Assembly (NCBI GenBank): GCA_038087875.1
Contig: CM075988.1
Location: 4,340,001-4,404,000 of the forward strand
DNA from: Malacoraja senta
Taxonomy: Eukaryota
Direction of reading: 5' to 3'
DNA length: 64,000 nucleotides
Numbering within the stretch: the stretch's first letter is position 1; every line of letters starts with the position of its first letter. Position numbers and translations under genes: made by a program. This document shows, piece after piece, positions 4,277 to 54,274 of the stretch. The notes beneath the pieces were generated by a model, which saw only the letters and a list, made by a program, of their open reading frames with translations, did not search any database and was not told the DNA's origin.

Positions 4277-4708
4277 ATAGATATATTTTAATTCGGAGTC
4301 ACGTGAGTGATTCCGTGTAGAACCCCACCAGTCGGCATGCGCATCATTACGTCTGACGCATGGCGCTCATCCAGCAGTACGTTTAAAAAGCCTCAGGTAA
4401 GTGTCAAACTTAGTCGGAGGTCGTTTTTTCTGCGCTTGTTAAATCTTGTTACGGGAGGGCAAGTCCAAGCATGGAGAAATCGTTGCGAGCAAGGTGAGCC
4501 ATTGCGAAAGTAACTAAGGACCACGGGAGTGCGGGGTAGCGGGCGGCCGCCTAGTTCATCTACAGAGTAGCGCTAATAGTGAAACCAGCGACTGCAGACT
4601 TGGTGTCTGAGGGCACCGTGGCTGCGTCGGTGGGGCATAAAGCCACCAGGAAGTCTGTACGGCCGATAGACTCCGACGAGTCCGGTCGGGAGGGTTCCCC
4701 CTCCAAGA

Positions 4709-6229
4709 ATGGATACCGTGTTTGGTCGGTTATCCAGGATGGAGCTCCTAATGGAGGGGATAATCCATCAAGAGCGCCGGCCTCTCCAAGAGCCCGAGCT
4801 AGCAGCACCTACTACAGGGCTGCCTAATGTCTCCCTCTTGGAGGAGGAGAGCATAACGGGTCAGTATGAGTCTGACGCCGAGTCTGTGGGCTTAGAATTG
4901 GAGGCTGCCCCAAGGGACGAAGGGCACGAGCCAGAGGTCCCATTCCTGGCAGCAAGATTTGCCGTCCCGACAGATTCTGGAGAGCTGCTGGGTGAAGAAT
5001 TGGCTGCTACAATAAATTACTTGGCCTCACACCAGCTTCAGGAGCTGACCATGGACGCAACAGCTAGGAAATATGACACACCGGCTAATTGTATCCTGCT
5101 TAAAGTGCCGGCAGTAAACCATGCCATCTGGGGCCATATGGGAGTAGGCATCAGGGCGCAGGAGATGAAGCTGCAAAGGGTACTGAAGCTACTCGCTTCC
5201 GGCATTACGGCATTCGGGAGGTCAGTGGATGGTGGGCACCTGACTGAGCTTCAACAGGATGCCCTGGCTCTCATGTGCAATGTGCACTTTGAGATAAACT
5301 GCCTTAGAAAGAGCGCCATCCGCCCTACAATCAACCCAAAATTCACTGCCCTGTGTAAGCCTAGCAACGTCCAGCCACCAAATCTTTTGTTCAGGGAAGA
5401 CCTCGCTAAACGGGTGAAGGAGCTGGACGACGAGGCAAAGACCGTCGGGCTCATTAAGGTGCCAATGACCAGCAGAACCCTTCGGAGGCAGCACCCCTAC
5501 AAGCGGTTTGCCGAAACCGGGTCCGGGCAAGGACCAAGCCGGCCATTCAAGGTGCGCAGCTGGCGCACTCCAGCTGGAGGCATTTATTGTACCACCAAGC
5601 ATCACTTACATGTTCAGCTTCAGATAGACAACACCACGACAGTGGCGTATGTGAATCATATGGGTGGAATCAAGTCAGAATCTTGTAACAGATTGGCTAA
5701 CCTTATTTGGCATTGGTGCATTAAAATAAACATTTGGGTATCAGCTGTCTACTTGCCAGGCAGGTTCAACATGGTGGCAGACACCAGGTCACGCAAATTC
5801 AATGACAACACAGAATGGATGTTGAATCATGATGTATTTAATGATATTTTTGTTCGGTATGGGATGCCAGATATCGATTTGTTTGCATCCAGACTCAATC
5901 ACCAGGTACCGAAGTATGTTTCATGGGAACCAGACCCAGGGGCAGTAACGGTAGACGCTTTCGCGCTACATTGGGGCGGAGTGTTTATATATGCATTTCC
6001 TCCATTCTGCCTCATCAGTCGGTGCTTGACCAAGATCAAGCAGGACTCTGCTTCAGGTGTTTTGGTGGTGCCTGACTGGCCTGCACAGCCATGGTTCCCT
6101 CTCATTTCGGACATTATAACTCAACCTATTATGGTGGTTCCAAAATGTAATAACCTATTGGTGAACCCTGTGACTGGGGATCAACACCTGTTGTATGATC
6201 GTATTAATTTGTTAATTTGCAGGTTTTAA
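4709..6229 (+). CDS. DIRS Gag fused in frame to RNase H C-terminus and N6-adenine methyltransferase-like domain (506 aa)
   Basis: Gag-like KYDTPANC..LKVPAVN..IW; RNase H DNTTTVAYVNHMGG and YLPGRFNMVAD; MT motifs DLFAS, DAF, YAFPPF, VVPDWPAQPWFP; no RT motifs. Confidence 0.8.
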   Translation: MDTVFGRLSRMELLMEGIIHQERRPLQEPELAAPTTGLPNVSLLEEESITGQYESDAESVGLELEAAPRDEGHEPEVPFLAARFAVPTDSGELLGEELAATINYLASHQLQELTMDATARKYDTPANCILLKVPAVNHAIWGHMGVGIRAQEMKLQRVLKLLASGITAFGRSVDGGHLTELQQDALALMCNVHFEINCLRKSAIRPTINPKFTALCKPSNVQPPNLLFREDLAKRVKELDDEAKTVGLIKVPMTSRTLRRQHPYKRFAETGSGQGPSRPFKVRSWRTPAGGIYCTTKHHLHVQLQIDNTTTVAYVNHMGGIKSESCNRLANLIWHWCIKINIWVSAVYLPGRFNMVADTRSRKFNDNTEWMLNHDVFNDIFVRYGMPDIDLFASRLNHQVPKYVSWEPDPGAVTVDAFALHWGGVFIYAFPPFCLISRCLTKIKQDSASGVLVVPDWPAQPWFPLISDIITQPIMVVPKCNNLLVNPVTGDQHLLYDRINLLICRF

Positions 6230-7199
6230 GGAGGCCATACCTGGGTCTGGGACTATCCAATCGTACCGTGGATATCATCACATCGTCCTGGAGGGATAGT
6301 ACAAAAAAGCAGTACATCTCTCATGTCAGGAAATGGCAGGAGTTTTGTTTACAAGGGAACATTAGTTACCACACAGCTTCCATCCCAGATGTGTTAGAGT
6401 TTCTGTCCAAATTGTATTTTGATGAAGGGTTGAGCTATAGTGCCATCAATAGTGCCAGGATTGCTCTGTCATCGTACTTATGCTTGGGGTCAGAACTACA
6501 GTCTGTAGGATCTCATCCGTTAATATCCCGGTTTATGAAGGGTGTTTTTAATTCCAATCCCCCCCAGGCCTAGATATTCAGAAATCTGGGATGTGAGTGT
6601 GGTACTCACGCTGCTTCGTCAGTGGGGTCAAGCCACATCCTTGTCTTTGGTAAAGATTACCCTGAAGTTGGTCATGCTCATGGCGTTAGTGTCAGCGCAG
6701 AGGGTTCAGACTCTGCAGAAGTTGCGACTGGACAGGATGGTGTCATCTGGGAATGATGTTATGTTTTACATATATGATCTCATAAAACGGAGCAGACCAG
6801 GGGTGTCAGGATTCAAGCTTGTACTGTCAGCATATCCCACGGATTTACGACTGTGTGTAGTGGTGTACTTGCGATGGTATATCGAGATCACCAAGGGCCT
6901 CAGAGGCTTGGAAGTATCATTGTTTATTAGCCACAAAAAGCCACATAGGAAAGTGTCGGTTCAGACCATTTCAAGATGGCTGAAAAGTGCTGGTTTGTGC
7001 AGGAGTTAATACTGACAATTTTAAATCTCACTCCACCAGGGCGGCATCAACGTCAGCAGCGAGGGCAATGGACGTCCCTCTAGACCATATCCTCGCGGCC
7101 GCAGGATGGTCAAATGAACTGACATTTCACAGGTTTTATAATAAACCACTTATCGAAACCGGGGTGTTCGCCCATTCAATTTTAAGTTCTGTTTCATAG
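6217..7199 (+). pseudogene. DIRS tyrosine recombinase with two frameshifts
   Basis: Overlapping ORFs 6217-6573, 6542-7009, 6987-7199: STKKQY, SAQRVQTL, TISRWLK, HSTR, AAGWS, FHRFY (R-H-R-W-Y catalytic set). Confidence 0.9.
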
Positions 7200-8190: not shown

Positions 8191-9329
8191 CCCCCCCCCC
8201 ACCCATTGACCTCACATCCCCAACCTTTCTGTGGCAAAGAATTACACAGATTCACCACCCTCTGATTTGTGAAATTCCGCCTCTTCTCCTTCCCAAAGGA
8301 ACGTCCTGAGGCTGTGACGTCTCATCCTCCACTCTTCCCCTCATGGAAACATCCTCTCCACATCCACTCTGTCCTAGCCATTCACTATTCTGTATGGTTC
8401 AATCAGGAATATCTCCCTTGTCCTCCGATAAGGGTCTGTTGTGTGGATGTGCAGTCGTCCCTAACATTGTGGAGTCATATCTCATGGAAACAGGCCTTTA
8501 GGTCCACAAGGAGTGCACAAATAATCAAGAATCAATCAACATTAATTGCATTATTATTCCACCCTCCCTCCGTATTCTGGATCGAACTGAAAGCTTCTTT
8601 CTGAAAGTTCCTTAGGATAAAAGGTCAATGGCATAAAACTGAGATATGGACTAGCTTCTTCGGTGAGTGAGCTGTAAGTCTTAGGAATTCTCTATCTCAG
8701 AGATCTGCAAATGATCATTTACTGAGTAACTTTGAAGGTGAGGTTAATACACTTATGGATTCAACTGGAGATGGAGAGATACAGGGATCAAGCAAGAAAG
8801 TAGATAAGCTGAAGGATCAGCCATGATATCGAGTAGCTGAGCTGACAGCCCTTCTACTCTTCACATCTCATACATTCTTGTACTTAACGGTTTTTGTAAA
8901 AAATAACTTTTTGAGTTACGTGGAATATTCCTTATGTGGGTACTGAGTTGGTGGGAGGATAATGTTGGATCTTGTTCAGAATTTCAGATCTAACCAGCAA
9001 ATGTAAGATAACCAGTGGGAAACCTGCAGATGCTGGTTTACATGAAGGGAGACCAAAAATGCTGGAGTAACTCAGTGGAACAGGCAGCGTCTCTGGATAA
9101 AAGGAATGAGTAATGTTTCAGGTCGAGACCCTTTTTCAGACATAAGATGAAGGATGGCAACAAGATGACATAAAGCATACCTTCTTCTTGCTTTGGATAG
9201 GCTGCAGAAACATAGAAACATAGAAAATAGGTCATTCAGCCCTTCGAGCCAGCACCACCATTCAATATGATCACGGCAAATCAGTACCCTGTTCCTGCTT
9301 TTTCCCCATATCCCTGGATTCCTTTAGCC

Positions 9330-9473
9330 TTTCTTCTTCTTCTTGCGTATGGCGTGCCCAGCTTAAAGTAGTAGGACAACTTGTTCTATTGGATCTTGTT
9401 TGATTGTGCACATCAGGTTGATTGCATTCATCAAAACAGGGCAGACTACGTGAAGGTTGCAATCTCCCACCCC
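9330..9473 (-). mobile_element. 144-bp non-autonomous retroposon with (AAG)n tail and 9-bp TSD
   Basis: TSD cctttagcc at 9321-9329 and 9474-9482; tail appears as ttcttcttcttc on +; interrupts a CR1 tail. Confidence 0.8.
9420..9473 (-). ncRNA. Minimal HDV-like (delta) ribozyme fold, this copy probably inactivated
   Basis: P1 GGGGTGG/CTGCCCT, P2 GATTGCA/TGCAATC, P3 ACC/AGT (one mismatch), L3 TTCACGT, J4/2 TGAA (catalytic C position is T). Confidence 0.75.
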
Positions 9474-9511
9474 CCTTTAGCCCTAAGAGCCAGTGATCAT
9501 AGACTGCCACG

Positions 9512-11880: not shown

Positions 11881-12331
11881 AAATAAATAAAACATGCTCG
11901 CATCGACCTACATACCCCATCTACGCTAGTCTCAACTCCCTGCATTTGGCCCATCTATACTATTACTAAAACTCTCATCTTGACGACTTCCGGTCTGCGT
12001 TGTAATTACATTTGCACAAAAACGCTACCCTATATCGCTAGGATTTTCCCGTCACCGTACTCACCGTTCTCCTCTGCTCCAAGCCACCAAGTTTTGTTCC
12101 GATCGGTGAAATAATAGAAAAGTTATGAAGGTTTAATAAGTCGCGAGATCAGCAGATTGGTCTTTACGCCTGTCAGTCACCATGAAGGTAAGGCCCCTTC
12201 CGGGGGTGTGGAGAATAAAGCCCCGGAGGCAGGGCGTGAGTCAGTCAGCCCGGAAGCCATGAGTGAGAGTTGAGTCCAGAACTGTGAGTCCACCAGCCGT
12301 TCGTGAGTGTACTGTGAGTCTAGAAGCTGTG

Positions 12332-12475
12332 GCTCAGTCCAGAGGTCGCGCTCAGTCTGGAGGTCACACTCAGTCCAGAAGTCGCACTCAGTGCAGAGGT
12401 TGCCCTCAGTCCAGAGGTCGCACTCAGTCCAGAGGTCGGACCTGCGTCCAGAAGTGGTGCTCAGTCCAGAAGTCG
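12332..12475 (+). repeat. 18-bp tandem repeat (ctcagtccagaggtcgca)
   Basis: About 7-8 diverged units seen directly. Confidence 0.85.
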
Positions 12476-12518
12476 GGCATGAGTATAGTCAAGAGAGTTT
12501 TACTGGCATATGTCCCGG

Positions 12519-13285
12519 ATGTGTGTGTGTGATGGAGGGTGTGTGTGTGTGAGTGTGTGTGAGTGTGTGAGAGATGGAGGGTGTGTGTGTGTGTGAGTGT
12601 GAATGTGTGTGCATGAGAGAGATGGAGGGTGTGTGTGTTTGTGTGTGTGATGGAGGGTGTGTGTGTGTGCATGTGTGTGTGTGTTAGATGGAGGGTCTGT
12701 GTGAGTGTGGGTGTATGTGTGTGAGATGGAGTGTGTGTGAGAGAGAGATGGAGTGTGTGTGTGTGAGATGGAGGGTGTGTGTGATAGAGTGTGTGTGTGT
12801 GATGGAGTGTGTGTGTGTGTGAGATGGAGGGTGTGTGTGATAGAGTGTGTTTGTGAGATGGAGGGTGTGTGTGTGCGAGGTCGAGGGTGTCAGTGTGTGC
12901 GTGTGTGTGAGTGTGTGTGTGCGTGAGATGGAGGGTGTGTGCGTGAGATGGAGGGCGTGAGGGTGTGTATGTGTGTGATGGAGGGTGTGTGTGTGAGTGA
13001 GTGAGATGGAGGGTGTGAGTGCGTGACAGTGAGATGGAGGATGTGAGTGTGTGAGTGTGTGTGTGTGAGATGGAGGGTGTGCATGTGAGTAAAATGGAGG
13101 GTGTATGTGTGAGTGAGATGGAGGGTGTGAGTGTGTGTATGTGTGAGTGAGATGGAGCGTGTGTGTGTGTGTGAGATAGAGGGTGTGTGTGTGTATGAGA
13201 TGGTGTGTGTGTCAGATGGAGTGTGTATGTGATGGAGGGTGTGTGTGTGCGATGAAGTGTGTGTGTGTGTGTGTGTGTGTGATGG
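12519..13285 (+). repeat. Compound (GT)n / gatggagg microsatellite array
   Basis: Repeated gatggagggtgtgtgt units. Confidence 0.95.
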
Positions 13286-13801
13286 ATGAGTCCACCAGCC
13301 GTGAGTGAGTGAACTGTGAGTCCACCAGCCGTGAGCGACTGAACTGTGAGTCCACCAGCCGTGAGTGAGTGAAATGTGAGTCCACCAGCCATGAGTGACT
13401 GAACTGTGAGTCCACCAGCCGTGAGTGAGTGAACGGTGTGTCCACCTGCCGTGAATGAGTGTACGGTGAGTCCACCAGCCATGAGTGAGTGAACGGTGAG
13501 TGCACCAGCCATGAGTGAGTGAACTGTGAGTCCACCAGCAATGAGTGAGTGATCTGTGAGTCCACCAGCCGTGAGTGAGTGGACTGTGAGTCCACCAGCC
13601 GTGAGTGACTGAACTGTGAGTGCACCAGCCGTGAGTGACTGAAATGTGAGTCCACCAGCCATGTTGACAAAACTGTGAGTCCACCAGCCGTGAGTGACTG
13701 AACTGTGAGTTCATCAGCCGTGAGTGACTGAAATGTGAGTCCACCAGCCATGTTGACAGAACTGTGAGTCCACCAGCCGTGAGTGACTGAACTGTGAGTC
13801 C
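13286..13801 (+). repeat. 30-bp minisatellite (gtgagtccaccagccgtgagtgagtgaact)
   Basis: About 17 head-to-tail units; a similar unit occurs at ~12281-12320. Confidence 0.95.
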
Positions 13802-21905: not shown

Positions 21906-22007
21906 CACATGCCTTTTTTATCACTCTTTCTACTTGTGTTGCCACTTTCAGGGACCTATGGACCTGGACCCGGACCCCGAGATCCTTCCGTACATCAATG
22001 CTGTAAA

Positions 22008-24440
22008 GTTCTTGGTTCTTGGTTTCTTGTTCCTCCAAAATATTCCAAATGGAATTTAAACTGGAGGGAGGACTTAAGCCAGAAATGGTTTTTGGGAAGA
22101 AAGAGCTACCTTAAATTTAGTTGCATCTGGTTGGGTAACTATAGTAGGGTGGAGATTATTCCATGCTTTAATTGTGCGGGGGAAGAATGAATTGCTGTAC
22201 ACATCTGTCTTGGTAGCTGGAATCACAAATTGGATCGAATGCCCTCGTCTGCTCCTAATTGGTTTGGGTTTGGTGTAGGTCTTGTAATCTATGTCGAGCT
22301 GACCATTTAACATTTTGTAAAAACAGGTCAAACGGTGAGCTTCACGTCTGTCTTGGAGAGGGTTCCACCCCAGAGAATTCAGAAGTTTGGTAACACTCGC
22401 TTCTCTCTCATAGGTGTTAGTAACAAATCGAGCTGCCTGTCTTTGGACACGTTCGATGGAAGAAATGTTTTTGTTTGTGTATGGGTCCCATGCTGCAACT
22501 GCGTAGTCCAAATGAGGTCTAACGATGGTGAAGTATAGCTTCTCCTTGACAGAAGTTGAACAATGATGAAAGTTGCGTCTCAGAAAGTTTAGGACACCTG
22601 TTGCTTTCACCGTTGCATGATGAGTCTGACCATTCCAACGCAGATCATTCTGCAATTTGATGCCAAGATACTTGGTTTGTTTGGATTCTTCAAGGGTGGC
22701 ACCAAGTATATTGTAAGATGTTTTGCCTGGATTCCTCTTTCTGGTGACACGCATGGTTTCACATTTGGAAGGGTTGAACTGCATGCCCCATTGTTGTGAC
22801 CACTCAACCATAGTATCTAGATCCTTTTGAAGAGCATCTTCATCATCAGCTGACCTAATTGGATGGTACAGCAAACAATCATCAGTGAATAGTTTGGTCG
22901 TACTTGTGACTTTTTCATGGATGTCATTTATGTAAAGCAAAACAGATGTGGGCCAAGTACTGTGCCCTGAGGTGTACCACTCAACACTGGATGCCAATCG
23001 GAGCTCTTTCCGTTCACACACACACGCTGAAAATGTTTTGTCAGGAAACTGGAAATCCATTGTTTCGTGTTGGAACGAATACCATAGAAATCAAGCTACC
23101 GAAGCAGTCTCTGGTGTGGGATGACATCAAATGCTTTAGAAAAGTCCAGCACTACAAAATCCATGATGACGTTACTATCAAGGTGCTTGGCCAGGTCATT
23201 TGTTGTCAGGATAAGCTGAGACTCACATGATCTATGCCTCCTAAATGCATGTTGGTTGTCAGCAAGAATGTTATATTTGCTCACGTGTCTCATCAGATTA
23301 CTATCAATTACATGCTCCAGTAATTTGCAGCAAGTACTTGTTAATGAAACAGGACGATAATTCGCTGGCTTGGTGGTTGAACCCTTCTTAAAGAGAGGAG
23401 TGATGTTAGCCTTCCTCCAATCCAGCGGAACATCACCTGAGTCAAGCGATTGTTGGAAAATGAACCGCAAAACTGGAGGCAGTTCTTCGGCCGCGATCTT
23501 GCGGCTTGATTCTGTATCTGATCTGGTCCAATTGCTTTTGTTGTATTAATGTTGAGCAATAACTTCTTGACACCTTCAACCTCAATTTTAATTACAGGCA
23601 TACCAGCATACGGGCTGGGCGGTAGATCTGGAAATGATGAAGGCTCCATATCTTCCCAGGTGAAAACGTGTTGAAATTGGTTTGCAAGAGCTTCTGGTTT
23701 CGCCTGGTCCTCAGTGATCAGACAGTTGTTCACTTTAAGCATCTGGACACCAGTGTTGTCTGTCCGTCTGGATTTCACATATCTCCAAAAAGCCTTGGGT
23801 TGCTCTCCCCCAAGAATAGAAGAAACATGTTGTCTATGAGCACTCCTAATAGCACGATCAACTTGCTTTCGCACTCTAGTAAAATTGTCCCAGTCCAGTT
23901 TTGTACCCCTTTTTTAGGTACGGATATAAGACTTCTCTTTCTTACTGCAGAGACGTTTCAGTTTTGCCGAAAACCAAGGAGGACGCATATGGTCCTTAAT
24001 AAGTTTTTGAGGAACATGATTTGCAACAATATTATTTAAAGAGCCACACCCAGTTGTCTTGTACGGATCTTTTATCTGGTCGCAGGTTGAATAAATCTTT
24101 TCCCAGTTTTTTTGCTAAGTCTTTAAATTTCTCACTGTTCACTTTTCTCCAGAGGGAAATTTTTCACGGTGGTTTTGAAGGAACTTTAAGCTTTGTGTGC
24201 AATTTTGCTTGGATAATATAATGATTGCCAATTCCAGCACACGATGAAACTTCCGAAATTAAACCTGGATGCGAAGTGAACAATAAATCTAAAGTATTTT
24301 CGGTGCCACTTGCCTCATCACGCCTGGTAGGGAAAGTGACTTTTTGGGACAGGTGATTTTACAGAGCAAGGTCAGCTAGGGCTTCCTGGAGAGCCCCTTT
24401 TGGTTTGCTTTATGTGCCGTCAGACCAATCTACACCTGAG
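22008..24440 (-). mobile_element. 5'-truncated CR1/L2-group LINE with near-complete, frameshifted RT and (CCAAGAA)n tail
   Basis: ORFs 23341-23874, 23096-23470, 22074-23060: ANYRPVSLTSTCCKLLEH, LDFSKAFD, LYINDI, FTDDCLLY, KYLGI, VRPHLDY...WDPY, SFFPRTIKAWNNL. Confidence 0.88.
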
Positions 24441-51486: not shown

Positions 51487-52780
51487 AGGGCCTGTCCCAC
51501 TTAGGCGACTTTTTAGGCGAGTGCAGGAGACTCTGCGCTCTGGTGGTCTCTGGTGAGTCTCCTTCATGGTCGCGAGGAGTTCCCGCATTCTGGGAACTAG
51601 TCGCGGCCTCAGTATGGTCACCACAAATTTGTCAACATGTTGAAAAATTTTCTGCGACCAAAAATTGGTTGCCATGGAGAAAATTTTGTAGTGGTAGGTG
51701 CAATTGTAGTGGGGTTGCCATGTAGTTATCAAGTCCAGTCACATTTATTTATATAGCACATTTAAAAGCAACTCTCGTTGACCAAAGTGCTTTACATTTG
51801 TTATAAGAATAATATAAACAAACAAACTACATACATATATACATGTAGCCCTCGCTCAGAGGACGTCAGGAAAGGCTTGGGAGAACAGATAAGTTTTTAG
51901 TCTTGACTTAAAGGAGTCGATGGAGGGGGCAGTTCTGATGGGAAGGGGGATGCTGTTCCACAGTCTAGTAGCTGCAACCGCAAAGGCGCGGTCACCCCTG
52001 AGCTTATGCCTAGACCGTGGGACATTCAGCAACCCCAAGTCGGCTGATCTGAGGGACCTGGAGGTGGAGTGGTGGGTGAGAAGACTTTTAATGTAGGTGA
52101 GGGCAAGCCCATTGAGGGCTTTGTAGACATGGAGGAGGATCTTGAAGTTTATACGGAACCGCACAGGGAGCCAGTGGAGAGAGGCCAGGATCGGGGTGAT
52201 GTGGTCCCTTTTTCGGGTGCCCGCCAGGAGTCTCGCTGCGGCGTTTTGGACCAGTTGCAGGCGGGACAGGGAAGATTGGCTGATGCCAGTGTAAAAGGAG
52301 TTGCAGTAATCTAGGCGGGAGGAGATGAATGTGTGGATGATCTTTTCGAGGTCATCAAACTGGAGGAATTGTTTTATTTTAGCTATTGTCCGAAGCTGAA
52401 AGAAGCTAGCTTTTACCACGGCATTGACTAGTTAGTCAAATTTCAGTGCTGAGTCAAATATCACGCCAAGGTTTTTGAAGTGAGGTTTGAGTAGTGGGGT
52501 AAGGCTTCAAAGGCTGCCTGCTATCATTTTGATTGAGTCCGAGGGGCCGAGAAGGATGACCTCAGACTTACTCTCGTTTAGTTATGGATAGTCGAGGTAG
52601 TCGTAGGTAGTTTAGTTAATCGCCTTTGCTGACAAGGCATTTTCATAGGCTCATTGGGGAAAAAAAGTAAGCATGAGTTTTCAGAACCAAGGAAAACCGA
52701 CCGGTAATGTTAAATGCCCGCCAAATTTCACAGCTATGTATCTATGGCTTCTTGAAAGTTGTCTGGCTTCTTAAAGGTTA
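51487..52780 (+). mobile_element. Harbinger-type MITE (left part), inserted in CR1 at TTA, interrupted by L2, running into the C/T array
   Basis: TIR agggcctgtcccacttaggcga; 52586-52780 matches ~60390-60550. Confidence 0.8.
51730..52578 (-). mobile_element. L2 LINE 3' portion
   Basis: ORF 51856-52419: SRLDYCNS, LQLVQNAAARLL, HITPILASLHWLPV, GDRAF..LWNS; L2-type 3' end gtaaagcactttg...tgctatataaataaa; tagttat on both sides. Confidence 0.9.
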
Positions 52781-54274
52781 CTCCCCCCCTTCTCCCCCCC
52801 CCCCTTCTCCCTCTCCCCCCCCTTCTCCCTCTCCCCCCCCTCTCCTCCCCCCCCCTTCTCCTCCCCCTCCCTTCTCCTCCCCCTCTTCTCTTCCCCCCCC
52901 CTTCTCCTCCCCCCCTTCTCCTCCCCCCCTTCTCCTCCCCCCCCTTCTCCTCCCCCCCCTTCTCCTCCCCCCCCTTCTCCTCCCCCCCCTTCTCCTCCCC
53001 CCCTTCTCCTCCCCCCCCTTCTCCTCCCCCCCCTTCTCCTCCCCCCCCCTTCTCCTCCCCCCCCCTTCTCCTCCCCCCCCTTCTCCTCCCCCCCCCTTCT
53101 CCTCCCCCCCCCTTCTCCTCCCCCCCCTTCTCCTCCCCCCCCTTCTCCTCCCCCCCCTTCTCCTCCCCCCCCTTCTCCTCCCCCCCCTTCTCCTCCCCCC
53201 CCTTCTCCTCCCCCCCCCTTCTCCTCCCCCCCCCTTCTCCTCCCCCCCCTTCTCCTCCCCCCCCTTCTTCTCCTCCCCCCCTTCTCCTCCCCCCCTTCTC
53301 CTCCCCCCCTTCTCCTCCCCCCCTTCTCCTCCCCCCCTTCTCCTCCCCCCCTTCTCCTCCCCCCCTTCTCCTCCCCCCCTTCTCCTCCCCCCCTTCTCCT
53401 CCCCCCTTCTCCTCCCCCCCTTCTCCTCCCCCCCTTCTCCTCCCCCCCTTCTCCTCCCCCCCTTCTCCTCCCCCCCTTCTCCTCCCCCCCTTCTCCTCCC
53501 CCCCTTCTCCTCCCCCCCCTTCTCTCTCCCCCCCTTCTCTCTCCCCCCCTTCTCCTCCCCCCCCTTCTCCTCCCCCCCCTTCTCCTCCCCCCCCTTCTCC
53601 TCCCCCCCCTTCTCCTTCCCCCCCTTCTCTCCCCCCCATCGCCCCCCTTCTCCCGCCCCCCTTCTCCCGCCCCCCTTCTCCCGCCCCCCTTCCCTCCCCC
53701 CTTCCCCCCCCTTCCCCCCCCCCTTCTCCCCCCCTTTCTCCCCCCCTTTCTCCCCCCCTTTCTCCCCCCCTTCTCTCCCCCTTCTCTCCCCCCCTTCTCT
53801 CCCCCCTTCTCTCCCCCCTTCTCTCCCCCCTTCTCTCCCCCCCTTCTCTCCCCCCCTTCTCTCCCCCCCTTCTCTCCCCCTTCTCTCCCCCCTTCTCTCC
53901 CCCCTTCTCTCCCCCCTTCTCTCTCCCCCTTCTCTCTCCCCCCCTTCTCTCCCCCCCTTCTCTCCCCCCCTTCTCTCCCCCCCCTTCTCTCCCCCCCCTT
54001 CTCTCCCCCCCTTCTCTCCCCCCCTTCTCTCCCCCCCTTCTCTCCCCCCCTTCTCTCCCCCCCTTCTCTCTCCCCCCTTCTCTCCCCCTTCCCCTTCTCT
54101 CCCCCCTTCTCTCCCCCCTTCTCTCCCCCCCTTCTCTCCCCCCTTCTCTCCCCCCCTTCTCTCCCCCCCCTTCTCTCCCCCCCTTCTCTCCCCCCCTTCT
54201 CTCCCCCCCCTTCTCTCCCCCCCCCTTCTCTCCCCCCCCTTCTCTCCCCCCCCTTCTCTCCCCCCCCTTCTCTC
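52781..54274. repeat. Long polypyrimidine array, (C6-7TTCTCCT)n then (C6-7TTCTCT)n
   Basis: Seen directly; almost no A or G on the + strand. Confidence 0.97.

Follow-up and report, generated by a model that had tools for sequence, protein, structure and literature searches.

How can a 144-bp repeat without open reading frames (ORFs) be copied so that nearly every new copy begins at the same base? The question is raised by an element in a 64,000-nt stretch of Malacoraja senta DNA (GenBank assembly GCA_038087875.1, contig CM075988.1, positions 4,340,001 to 4,404,000 of the forward strand), hereafter called the window. A first-pass annotation, made from the sequence alone, had described this element as a retroposon whose 5′ end is the first base (G1) of a fold resembling the self-cleaving ribozyme of hepatitis delta virus (HDV). 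We found that the element belongs to a family of thousands of copies, that its head can be assigned by sequence to the HDV/CPEB3 ribozyme class as a minimal member lacking helix P4, and that related heads stand at the 5′ ends of a long interspersed nuclear element (LINE) and of other short families in the same genome. These observations make it probable that the ribozyme frees the element from longer transcripts and that a LINE copies the released RNA.

Layout of the element in the window

The window copy is a 144-bp element on the minus strand, running from 9473 down to 9330. Its 9-bp target-site duplication, GGCTAAAGG, is found at 9474-9482 and 9321-9329 and directly adjoins G1, so that the layout given in the first-pass annotation was confirmed. 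The features are listed below in window positions, with the basis of each in brackets; the descriptor and model R1 are described in the following sections.

9474..9482, minus strand: upstream copy of the target-site duplication, 9 bp, next to G1 (read from sequence)
9420..9473, minus strand: ribozyme head, 54 nt, P4-less, HDV/CPEB3-type, judged dead in this copy (layout; descriptor; model R1)
9467-9473 with 9438-9444, minus strand: P1 of the head (layout)
9458-9464 with 9420-9426, minus strand: P2 of the head (layout)
9455-9457 with 9445-9447, minus strand: P3 of the head (layout)
9448-9454, minus strand: L3 of the head (layout)
9436-9437, minus strand: J1/4 of the head (layout)
9431-9435, minus strand: P4 remnant of the head (layout)
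9427-9430, minus strand: J4/2 of the head (layout)
9430, minus strand: catalytic position, T in the window copy and C in intact copies (C44>T, inside a CpG; copy comparison)
9447, minus strand: P3′ mismatch, A in the window copy and G in 27 of 30 copies (copy comparison)
9345..9419, minus strand: non-coding body, element nt 55-129 (no match to sampled LINEs or other short families except the tail)
9366..9382, minus strand: 3′ stem-loop, element nt 92-108 (minimum-energy fold of an intact copy)
9330..9344, minus strand: (AAG)n microsatellite tail, (AAG)4 then AAA in the window copy (read from sequence)
9321..9329, minus strand: downstream copy of the target-site duplication, 9 bp (read from sequence)

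In the window copy, P1 joins element nt 1-7 to nt 30-36 with all seven positions paired, three of them as G-U wobbles including G1-U36, and P2 (nt 10-16 with 48-54) consists of seven perfect pairs. P3 (nt 17-19 with 27-29) has one mismatch, the A at nt 27, and L3 (nt 20-26) reads TTCACGT. The P4 region is only 5 nt long, in agreement with the earlier statement that P4 is almost absent. The J4/2 joiner (nt 44-47) is TGAA, compared with CGAA in intact copies. Overall, 11 of 144 positions differ from the intact copy L010, four of which are in the ribozyme (27 G>A, 31 C>T, 41 C>T and 44 C>T). Because the catalytic C and one P3 pair have been lost, the sequence identifies the window copy as a dead relic. 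Its decay had been ascribed to CpG mutation, which holds for the change of the catalytic C, located inside a CpG, but not for the P3 change G27>A, which is not at a CpG. Near the other end of the element, nt 92-108 are predicted to form a stem-loop of 7 bp and a 3-nt loop in intact copies, with one mismatch in the window copy; this structure is a possible recognition site for a reverse transcriptase.

A large family with uniform 5′ ends

The assembly searched comprises 1.94 Gb, in which BLAST with the element returned 2,237 first-look candidates. The 40 scored matches were 92-94% identical (the window's own copy aside), and 38 of these 40 started at base 1 of the query. Exact-pattern counts in the genome were 4,113 for a 28-base head, so that the family has at least 4,113 heads, 2,409 for a 28-base 3′ end, and 1,879 for the perfect core from L3 to P2′. 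Loci sampled via the 3′ end, which are unbiased with regard to the head, nevertheless carried it in 29 of 30 cases, and the only tail without a head (L033) was a 5′-truncated copy in single-copy DNA. An exact duplication of at least 7 bp was present in 59 of 76 unique copies; it ended at G1 in 25 of them, one base into the G run in 18, and elsewhere by 1-3 bases in 16. Uniform 5′ ends at G1, as predicted in the first-pass annotation, were therefore seen in all three samples, with 43 of 59 duplications ending at G1 or one base beyond it. The duplications vary between copies (9-14 bp), the insertions are dispersed, and the upstream flanks are mutually unrelated. Being dispersed, multi-copy, ORF-less, flanked by duplications and terminated by a 3′ repeat tail, the element has the features of a non-autonomous non-long-terminal-repeat retroposon.

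Two main subfamilies could be distinguished by the joiner, which is CGAA in subfamily A and CTAA in subfamily B; the latter accounts for about one third of the first 100 perfect cores. Their consensus sequences differ at 9 positions, of which two lie in the ribozyme: nt 8, which belongs to a joiner, and nt 45, the N of the CNRA motif, which is free to vary. None of the 9 falls within the 46 constrained ribozyme positions, an outcome with an estimated chance of ~0.02. Of the 30 best copies, 27 have GGT in P3′ and 21 have CGAA in J4/2, both as expected from the first-pass annotation.

Several side observations concern the history of the family. The window element is embedded in another very abundant repeat (window 9200-9320; also L009, L010 and L084), and at L084 this flank repeat is itself inserted into a copy of the element. 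Element and flank repeat are thus nested both ways and were therefore active in overlapping periods. Another copy, L083 (G000:C1:98148470-98149060), contains an inverted duplication at the 3′ stem-loop. Besides, contigs from RNA runs labelled as other organisms (A, B and E; runs X1, X4 and X17) also contain the element and vary at the same positions as in the genome (nt 8, 31, 32, 42, 44 and 45); since it occurs under several organism labels, the family is common to them.

The head has the HDV-type double pseudoknot

Intact copies have a 7-bp P1, a 7-bp P2 and a 3-bp P3 arranged as a nested double pseudoknot, with conserved single strands TTCACGT in L3, GT in J1/4, and CGAA (subfamily A) or CTAA (subfamily B) in J4/2. 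This arrangement was compared with the HDV descriptor of the RNArobo supplement (PMC4870747), which consists of L3 TYYHCGY, a 3-bp Watson-Crick P3, J1/4 RN, at least 4 nt in the P4 region, J4/2 CNRA and a 6-bp P2; we set P1 to 7 bp, as the P1 length printed in that source did not fit a 7-bp P1. Intact copies match the descriptor starting at G1, and the window copy fails at P3 and at the catalytic C. In 632,536 nt of real sequence, the descriptor gave 45 matches, all 45 of which were in the element family, and no match was found in 38 Mb of first-order Markov sequence. The whole descriptor was satisfied by 11 of 27 unbiased copies and by 18 of the 30 best copies. A relaxed version detected no additional HDV-like motif in the first 316 kb scanned.

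When an intact copy was searched with Rfam at E<=10, three of the four matches were HDV-class families, aligning from G1: RF00094 (HDV) at 20 bits with a cut-off of 50, RF02682 (F. prausnitzii) at 14.4 with a cut-off of 44, and RF00622 (CPEB3) at 11 with a cut-off of 35. Of the two kinds of search proposed in the first-pass annotation, the HDV descriptor recognized the fold in intact copies, and the Rfam scores were below the cut-offs. The nested fold of P1 and P3 is the predicted minimum-energy structure (-12.4 kcal/mol), and P1.1 of this P4-less head is weak, consisting by position of one C-G pair and a U-U.

A LINE with a CPEB3-type head in the same genome

Listing the sequences that precede other (AAG)n tails in the genome revealed several further repeat families, one of which is a LINE. 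The one full-length copy read has a single uninterrupted frame of 1014 aa, in which Pfam recognized an apurinic/apyrimidinic endonuclease (APE) domain and a reverse transcriptase but gave no RNase H match. This LINE is young; more than 50 of 150 scored matches were at least 86% identical in protein, and its 3′ untranslated region (UTR) is only ~25 nt long and is followed by the (AAG)n tail. The LINE begins with G1 of an HDV-type ribozyme that is complete and includes a real P4; this head scored 52.6 bits against RF00622, the mammalian CPEB3 ribozyme family (cut-off 35). A genome scan with RF00622, in which 59 candidates were scored, gave 51 at E<=0.001 and 39 above the cut-off, the best reaching 64.2 bits, and there was no signal in any of 14 control genomes. 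In six of six further LINE 5′ ends, the P1 strand directly follows unrelated flanking sequence, and in two LINE copies the duplication ends at most 2 bases from G1. The first-pass annotation had named RTE as a possible clade of the partner LINE; the layout of the LINE found here (single ORF, APE and reverse transcriptase, no RNase H match) fits the description of Vingi elements, a comparison of layout only. A review describes Vingi-1 as compact, with a single ORF, APE and reverse transcriptase, and without RNase H (PMC13708176).

Two full-length LINEs, at L092:3350-3466 (-) and L097 (-), carry a tandem array of 4-6 partial ribozyme units, each 26 nt long, that precedes the complete ribozyme. 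A unit starts at the end of the P1 strand and reaches to P3′; other LINE copies have one unit. The P1 strand of the LINE and its partner have the palindrome GATC in common, which may allow the reverse transcriptase to slip back at the RNA 5′ end. A second LINE lineage (L093:543-636, L094 and L096) has ~60% protein identity and a short (GAA/AAG) tail; the single copy seen seems to begin with an imperfect HDV-like fold. The 3′ UTR of this second lineage shares 11 nt with nt 8-18 of the element, a match that was dismissed as not significant (E 0.23 in a tiny database).

Other leads to a LINE were also set aside. A pattern for the head with a long P4 had 56 matches, all of which were short-element copies with a chance CGAA. 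The head followed by other downstream sequence had two, one with a 3-bp deletion and the other a 3′-cut copy with single-copy flank, and both matches to the 3′ stem-loop preceded by other upstream sequence were rearranged copies.

Related short families and covariation of the heads

Similar heads were found on other short repeats. A family of ~205 nt has 20 exact head matches, a duplication adjoining G1 and a head at 37.1 bits. A family of ~170 nt carries a second, independent P4-less head, in which five bases replace P4 and the joiner is CCAA; it scores 36-44 bits. More CPEB3-type heads occur at loci L108, L109 and L110; the P4 hairpin and P2 of L110 and L109 look especially near the Rfam mammalian CPEB3 consensus, and both copies look truncated or mutated at P1. 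The related LINE and short-family heads pass the RF00622 cut-off (35-64 bits), and the CNRA joiner and the catalytic C are kept in all of them as well as in both subfamily consensuses of the element.

We aligned 13 related heads from the same genome, leaving out the family of the window element. For the double pseudoknot including P4, 94.0% of cells were paired, compared with 39-49% when the partners were slid. Changes on both sides were seen in 13 of the 25 pairs, a number reached in none of 500 shuffles. Similarly, a table of six families that includes the element has four non-pairs in 100 cells and at least two pair types at 12 of 17 helix positions, with the caveat that the parser chooses the best register. 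The 13 heads also served to build a covariance model (model R1). In a search of 110 kb, it recovered the complete 54-nt heads of the element with 27.7-32.1 bits (E 3e-5 to 3e-4) and the dead window copy with 18 bits (E 0.045); at E<=10 it found nothing else in these 110 kb. Since the model was built without the element and still finds its heads, the element head is, as judged from these alignments, a minimal member of the covarying ribozyme family found at the 5′ end of the LINE.

Recurring 3′ ends revealed at least three further (AAG)n-tailed families (L085 and L087 among them), and Rfam detected no ribozyme head in the two loci searched, L085 and L087. Yet another (AAG)n-tailed repeat, L088 (G000:C1:343326000-343327570), contains a frame of 234 aa that includes a CCHC zinc knuckle. 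The sequence from this frame to the tail lacks a reverse transcriptase, and the repeat may be a gag-only non-autonomous LINE.

Proposed mechanism and alternative explanations

We consider it probable that the element is an ORF-less non-autonomous retroposon which is freed by its 5′ HDV/CPEB3-type ribozyme and copied by a LINE. A copy located in any transcribed region would be transcribed together with its surroundings from host promoters. The head would then fold and cut the RNA just 5′ of G1, giving a promoterless RNA with a defined 5′ end. The reverse transcriptase of a LINE would prime on the (AAG)n tail at a nicked target, possibly with the help of the 3′ stem-loop, and copy the RNA to its very end; new copies would therefore start at G1 and be flanked by 9-14-bp duplications. 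From the sequence features of the head we infer self-cleavage and release from read-through transcripts. For the copying step, the (AAG)n-tailed LINE is the inferred partner. The first-pass annotation had anticipated a LINE with a common 3′ tail, and an (AAG)n-tailed LINE with the same class of ribozyme at its 5′ end does exist, but the body of the element has nothing in common with the sampled LINEs beyond the tail. The last bases of the LINE before its tail resemble those of subfamily B; a more extensive common 3′ region was not found.

A number of results weigh against this explanation. Exact-pattern searches of the genome found no LINE sharing the head or the 3′ end of the element, and the body showed no similarity, except in the tail, to the sampled LINEs and other short families, so that the element cannot have arisen from those LINEs by simple internal deletion. 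The 18 of 59 duplications that end one base into the G run are an excess, which leaves the exact first base uncertain by one. The intact head did not reach the Rfam gathering score of any HDV-class family, and the window copy, which is too decayed, had no HDV-class Rfam match even at E<=10. The stability of P1 and P3 was not above that of shuffled sequences (z +0.92; 168 of 200 shuffles folded at least as well). The helices are invariant within the element family, so that the covariation stems solely from other families. Finally, in a poly(A) RNA run (X24) reads covered the element on both strands without a pile-up of read starts at G1. This last result comes from one raw run in which the flank repeat blurred the 5′ junction, and it is weak evidence because a poly(A) library would hardly contain a short non-adenylated RNA, here a tail-less one of 144 nt. 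The 3′ stem-loop was likewise no better than shuffles (z -0.06), and nested folding energy was dropped as evidence for either structure.

The absence of a pile-up in X24 would also be expected if the head did not cut, or if cutting were irrelevant, and the fold served instead as a promoter, a binding site for LINE protein or a protection of the 5′ end, with transcription initiation setting the first base. There are precedents for such roles: the first 77 nt of trypanosome L1Tc/NARTc (Pr77) are reported to act both as promoter and as ribozyme (PMC3383444), and according to a review the fold of the R2 ribozyme has a cap-like protective role and Vingi-based tools retain their native 5′ UTR (PMC13708176). 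A P4-less form with a weak P1.1 could, moreover, be slow. However, a structural role alone would not require the catalytic C and the CNRA motif, both of which persist in the two consensuses and in all related heads, nor does it sit well with a perfect core kept in 1,879 copies. In addition, there are no RNA polymerase III (Pol III) signals, and the unrelated upstream flanks speak against a common external promoter. We thus regard a non-cutting head as unlikely. A more conventional possibility is a Pol III-transcribed short interspersed nuclear element (SINE) with a head derived from a small RNA and a coincidental likeness to HDV. An A-box-like match at nt 5-15 and a B-box-like match at nt 37-47 were indeed noted, but each has three mismatches to the box motifs, and about one such match is expected by chance in 144 nt by our estimate. 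In line with the absence of Pol III boxes stated in the first-pass annotation, there is no A or B box within two mismatches in the element; ARAGORN found no tRNA-like fold, and Rfam at E<=10 gave no tRNA, 5S or 7SL match. Together with the recovery of the head by a model built from the LINE and other heads, this makes a classical Pol III SINE very improbable. Still less credible is that an ordinary retroposon carries such a fold at its end purely by chance. The nested energy and the sub-threshold Rfam scores are what such a fold would give, but chance does not account for a descriptor that matched nothing in 38 Mb of random sequence and, in real sequence, matched only members of the family. 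Nor does it account for the recurrence of this architecture, with helices of other sequence, at the heads of a LINE and several other families. Release of the element by its own ribozyme, followed by copying by a LINE, is therefore the explanation that we retain.

Other features of the window and genome

Other repeats in the window were noted in passing. A LINE fragment with reverse-transcriptase frames at 22000-24040 (-) ends in a 7-base tail, (CAAGAAC)n, and is distinct from the (AAG)n LINEs. Frames of 519, 121 and 156 aa at 4670-7010 (+) look, by eye, like a DIRS-type retroelement. A large simple-repeat array at 12330-13800 has TG-rich and 30-base units, and another large array at 52780-54270 has a C-rich 14-15-base unit and is followed by a run translating as X (masked or N). 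Intact CR1-like and DIRS-like frames are present. CpG depletion is mild, with an observed/expected ratio near 0.5 (an estimate from the first-order Markov matrix). Both features point to a non-mammalian genome; for a LINE of the window, comparison with a protein atlas gave no more than Chordata/Arthropoda.

Significance

These findings suggest a wider hypothesis, which we put forward tentatively and with less than even confidence. The CPEB3 ribozyme may be a retrotransposon ribozyme: a vertebrate LINE lineage, perhaps Vingi-like, and its short dependants would carry RF00622-type 5′ ends, the mammalian copy would have been domesticated, and the two independent P4-less families, with their thousands of copies, would demonstrate that ~54 nt of core suffice in animal cells. 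If this is true, the genome supplies the outgroup missing from CPEB3 ribozyme phylogenies. The P4-less HDV-like ribozyme, described until now from metagenomes and phages, is found here at the head of an animal repeat, and at least 1,879 perfect-core copies represent potential cut sites within host transcripts. As a LINE and several dependent families match the CPEB3 family above the Rfam cut-off in a vertebrate genome that is apparently not mammalian, the origin of CPEB3 and HDV-type ribozymes becomes directly testable. Besides, if the LINE is a Vingi element, a clade known for bipartite derivatives gains a 5′ ribozyme that would explain them.

Comparison with known systems

LINEs that end in a ribozyme, and the short elements that parasitize them, have been on record since 2010-2012. 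According to a review, LINEs and non-autonomous SINEs free themselves from co-transcripts by HDV-like ribozymes (PMC6765202). The nearest counterpart is NARTc and L1Tc of Trypanosoma cruzi (ingi clade), in which Pr77 contains L1TcRz: here too, a dispersed ORF-less retroposon and a LINE have HDV-like heads, which are thought to release the RNA from co-transcripts (PMC3185411, PMC3383444, PMC4035085, PMC6765202). However, NARTc is an internal-deletion copy of L1Tc with the same 77 nt, whereas the head, the body and most of the 3′ end of our element differ from those of every sampled LINE. The element is also distinguished from NARTc by the lack of P4, the (AAG)n tail and a large animal genome as host. 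In Drosophila R2 SIDEs, as in the element, a 5′ ribozyme sets a precise terminus, the 3′ end serves for priming, and mobilization is in trans (PMC3414825, PMC6765202). SIDEs are found only in 28S ribosomal DNA, and R2, the LINE from which they stem, has a restriction-like endonuclease; in contrast, the element is dispersed, its flanks and 9-14-bp duplications vary, and the LINE found here is of the APE type. The element further resembles the bipartite derivatives of Vingi (reptiles, hedgehog) and RTE, which are short, ORF-less elements that retain the ends of their LINEs (PMC5786205). According to the same 2018 paper by Kojima, RTE, Ingi, Vingi and R2 are the only clades known to make bipartite non-autonomous LINEs (PMC5786205).

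With regard to the ribozyme itself, the element is identical to the Rfam consensus of the CPEB3 ribozyme (RF00622) in L3, in J1/4 and in its CGAA joiner, but the head scores only 11 bits against this family and has no P4. The CPEB3 ribozyme is a single intronic copy and, in a 2021 paper, is said to be absent outside mammals or outside the CPEB3 gene (PMC8233481). A double pseudoknot of ~50 nt without P4 is also known from drz-Mtgn and the gut-phage theta ribozymes (bioRxiv 10.1101/2023.06.13.544163); these are metagenomic or phage ribozymes adjoining tRNAs, whereas the element is present as thousands of animal copies. In the literature searched, which covered few subscription papers and neither Repbase nor Dfam, there was no link between Vingi and a ribozyme, no CPEB3-type ribozyme in retroelements and no sequence of the element. 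Thus, the kind of element, a short ribozyme-headed retroposon, is already known, but a P4-less form on an animal repeat and a CPEB3-type head on a LINE look new.

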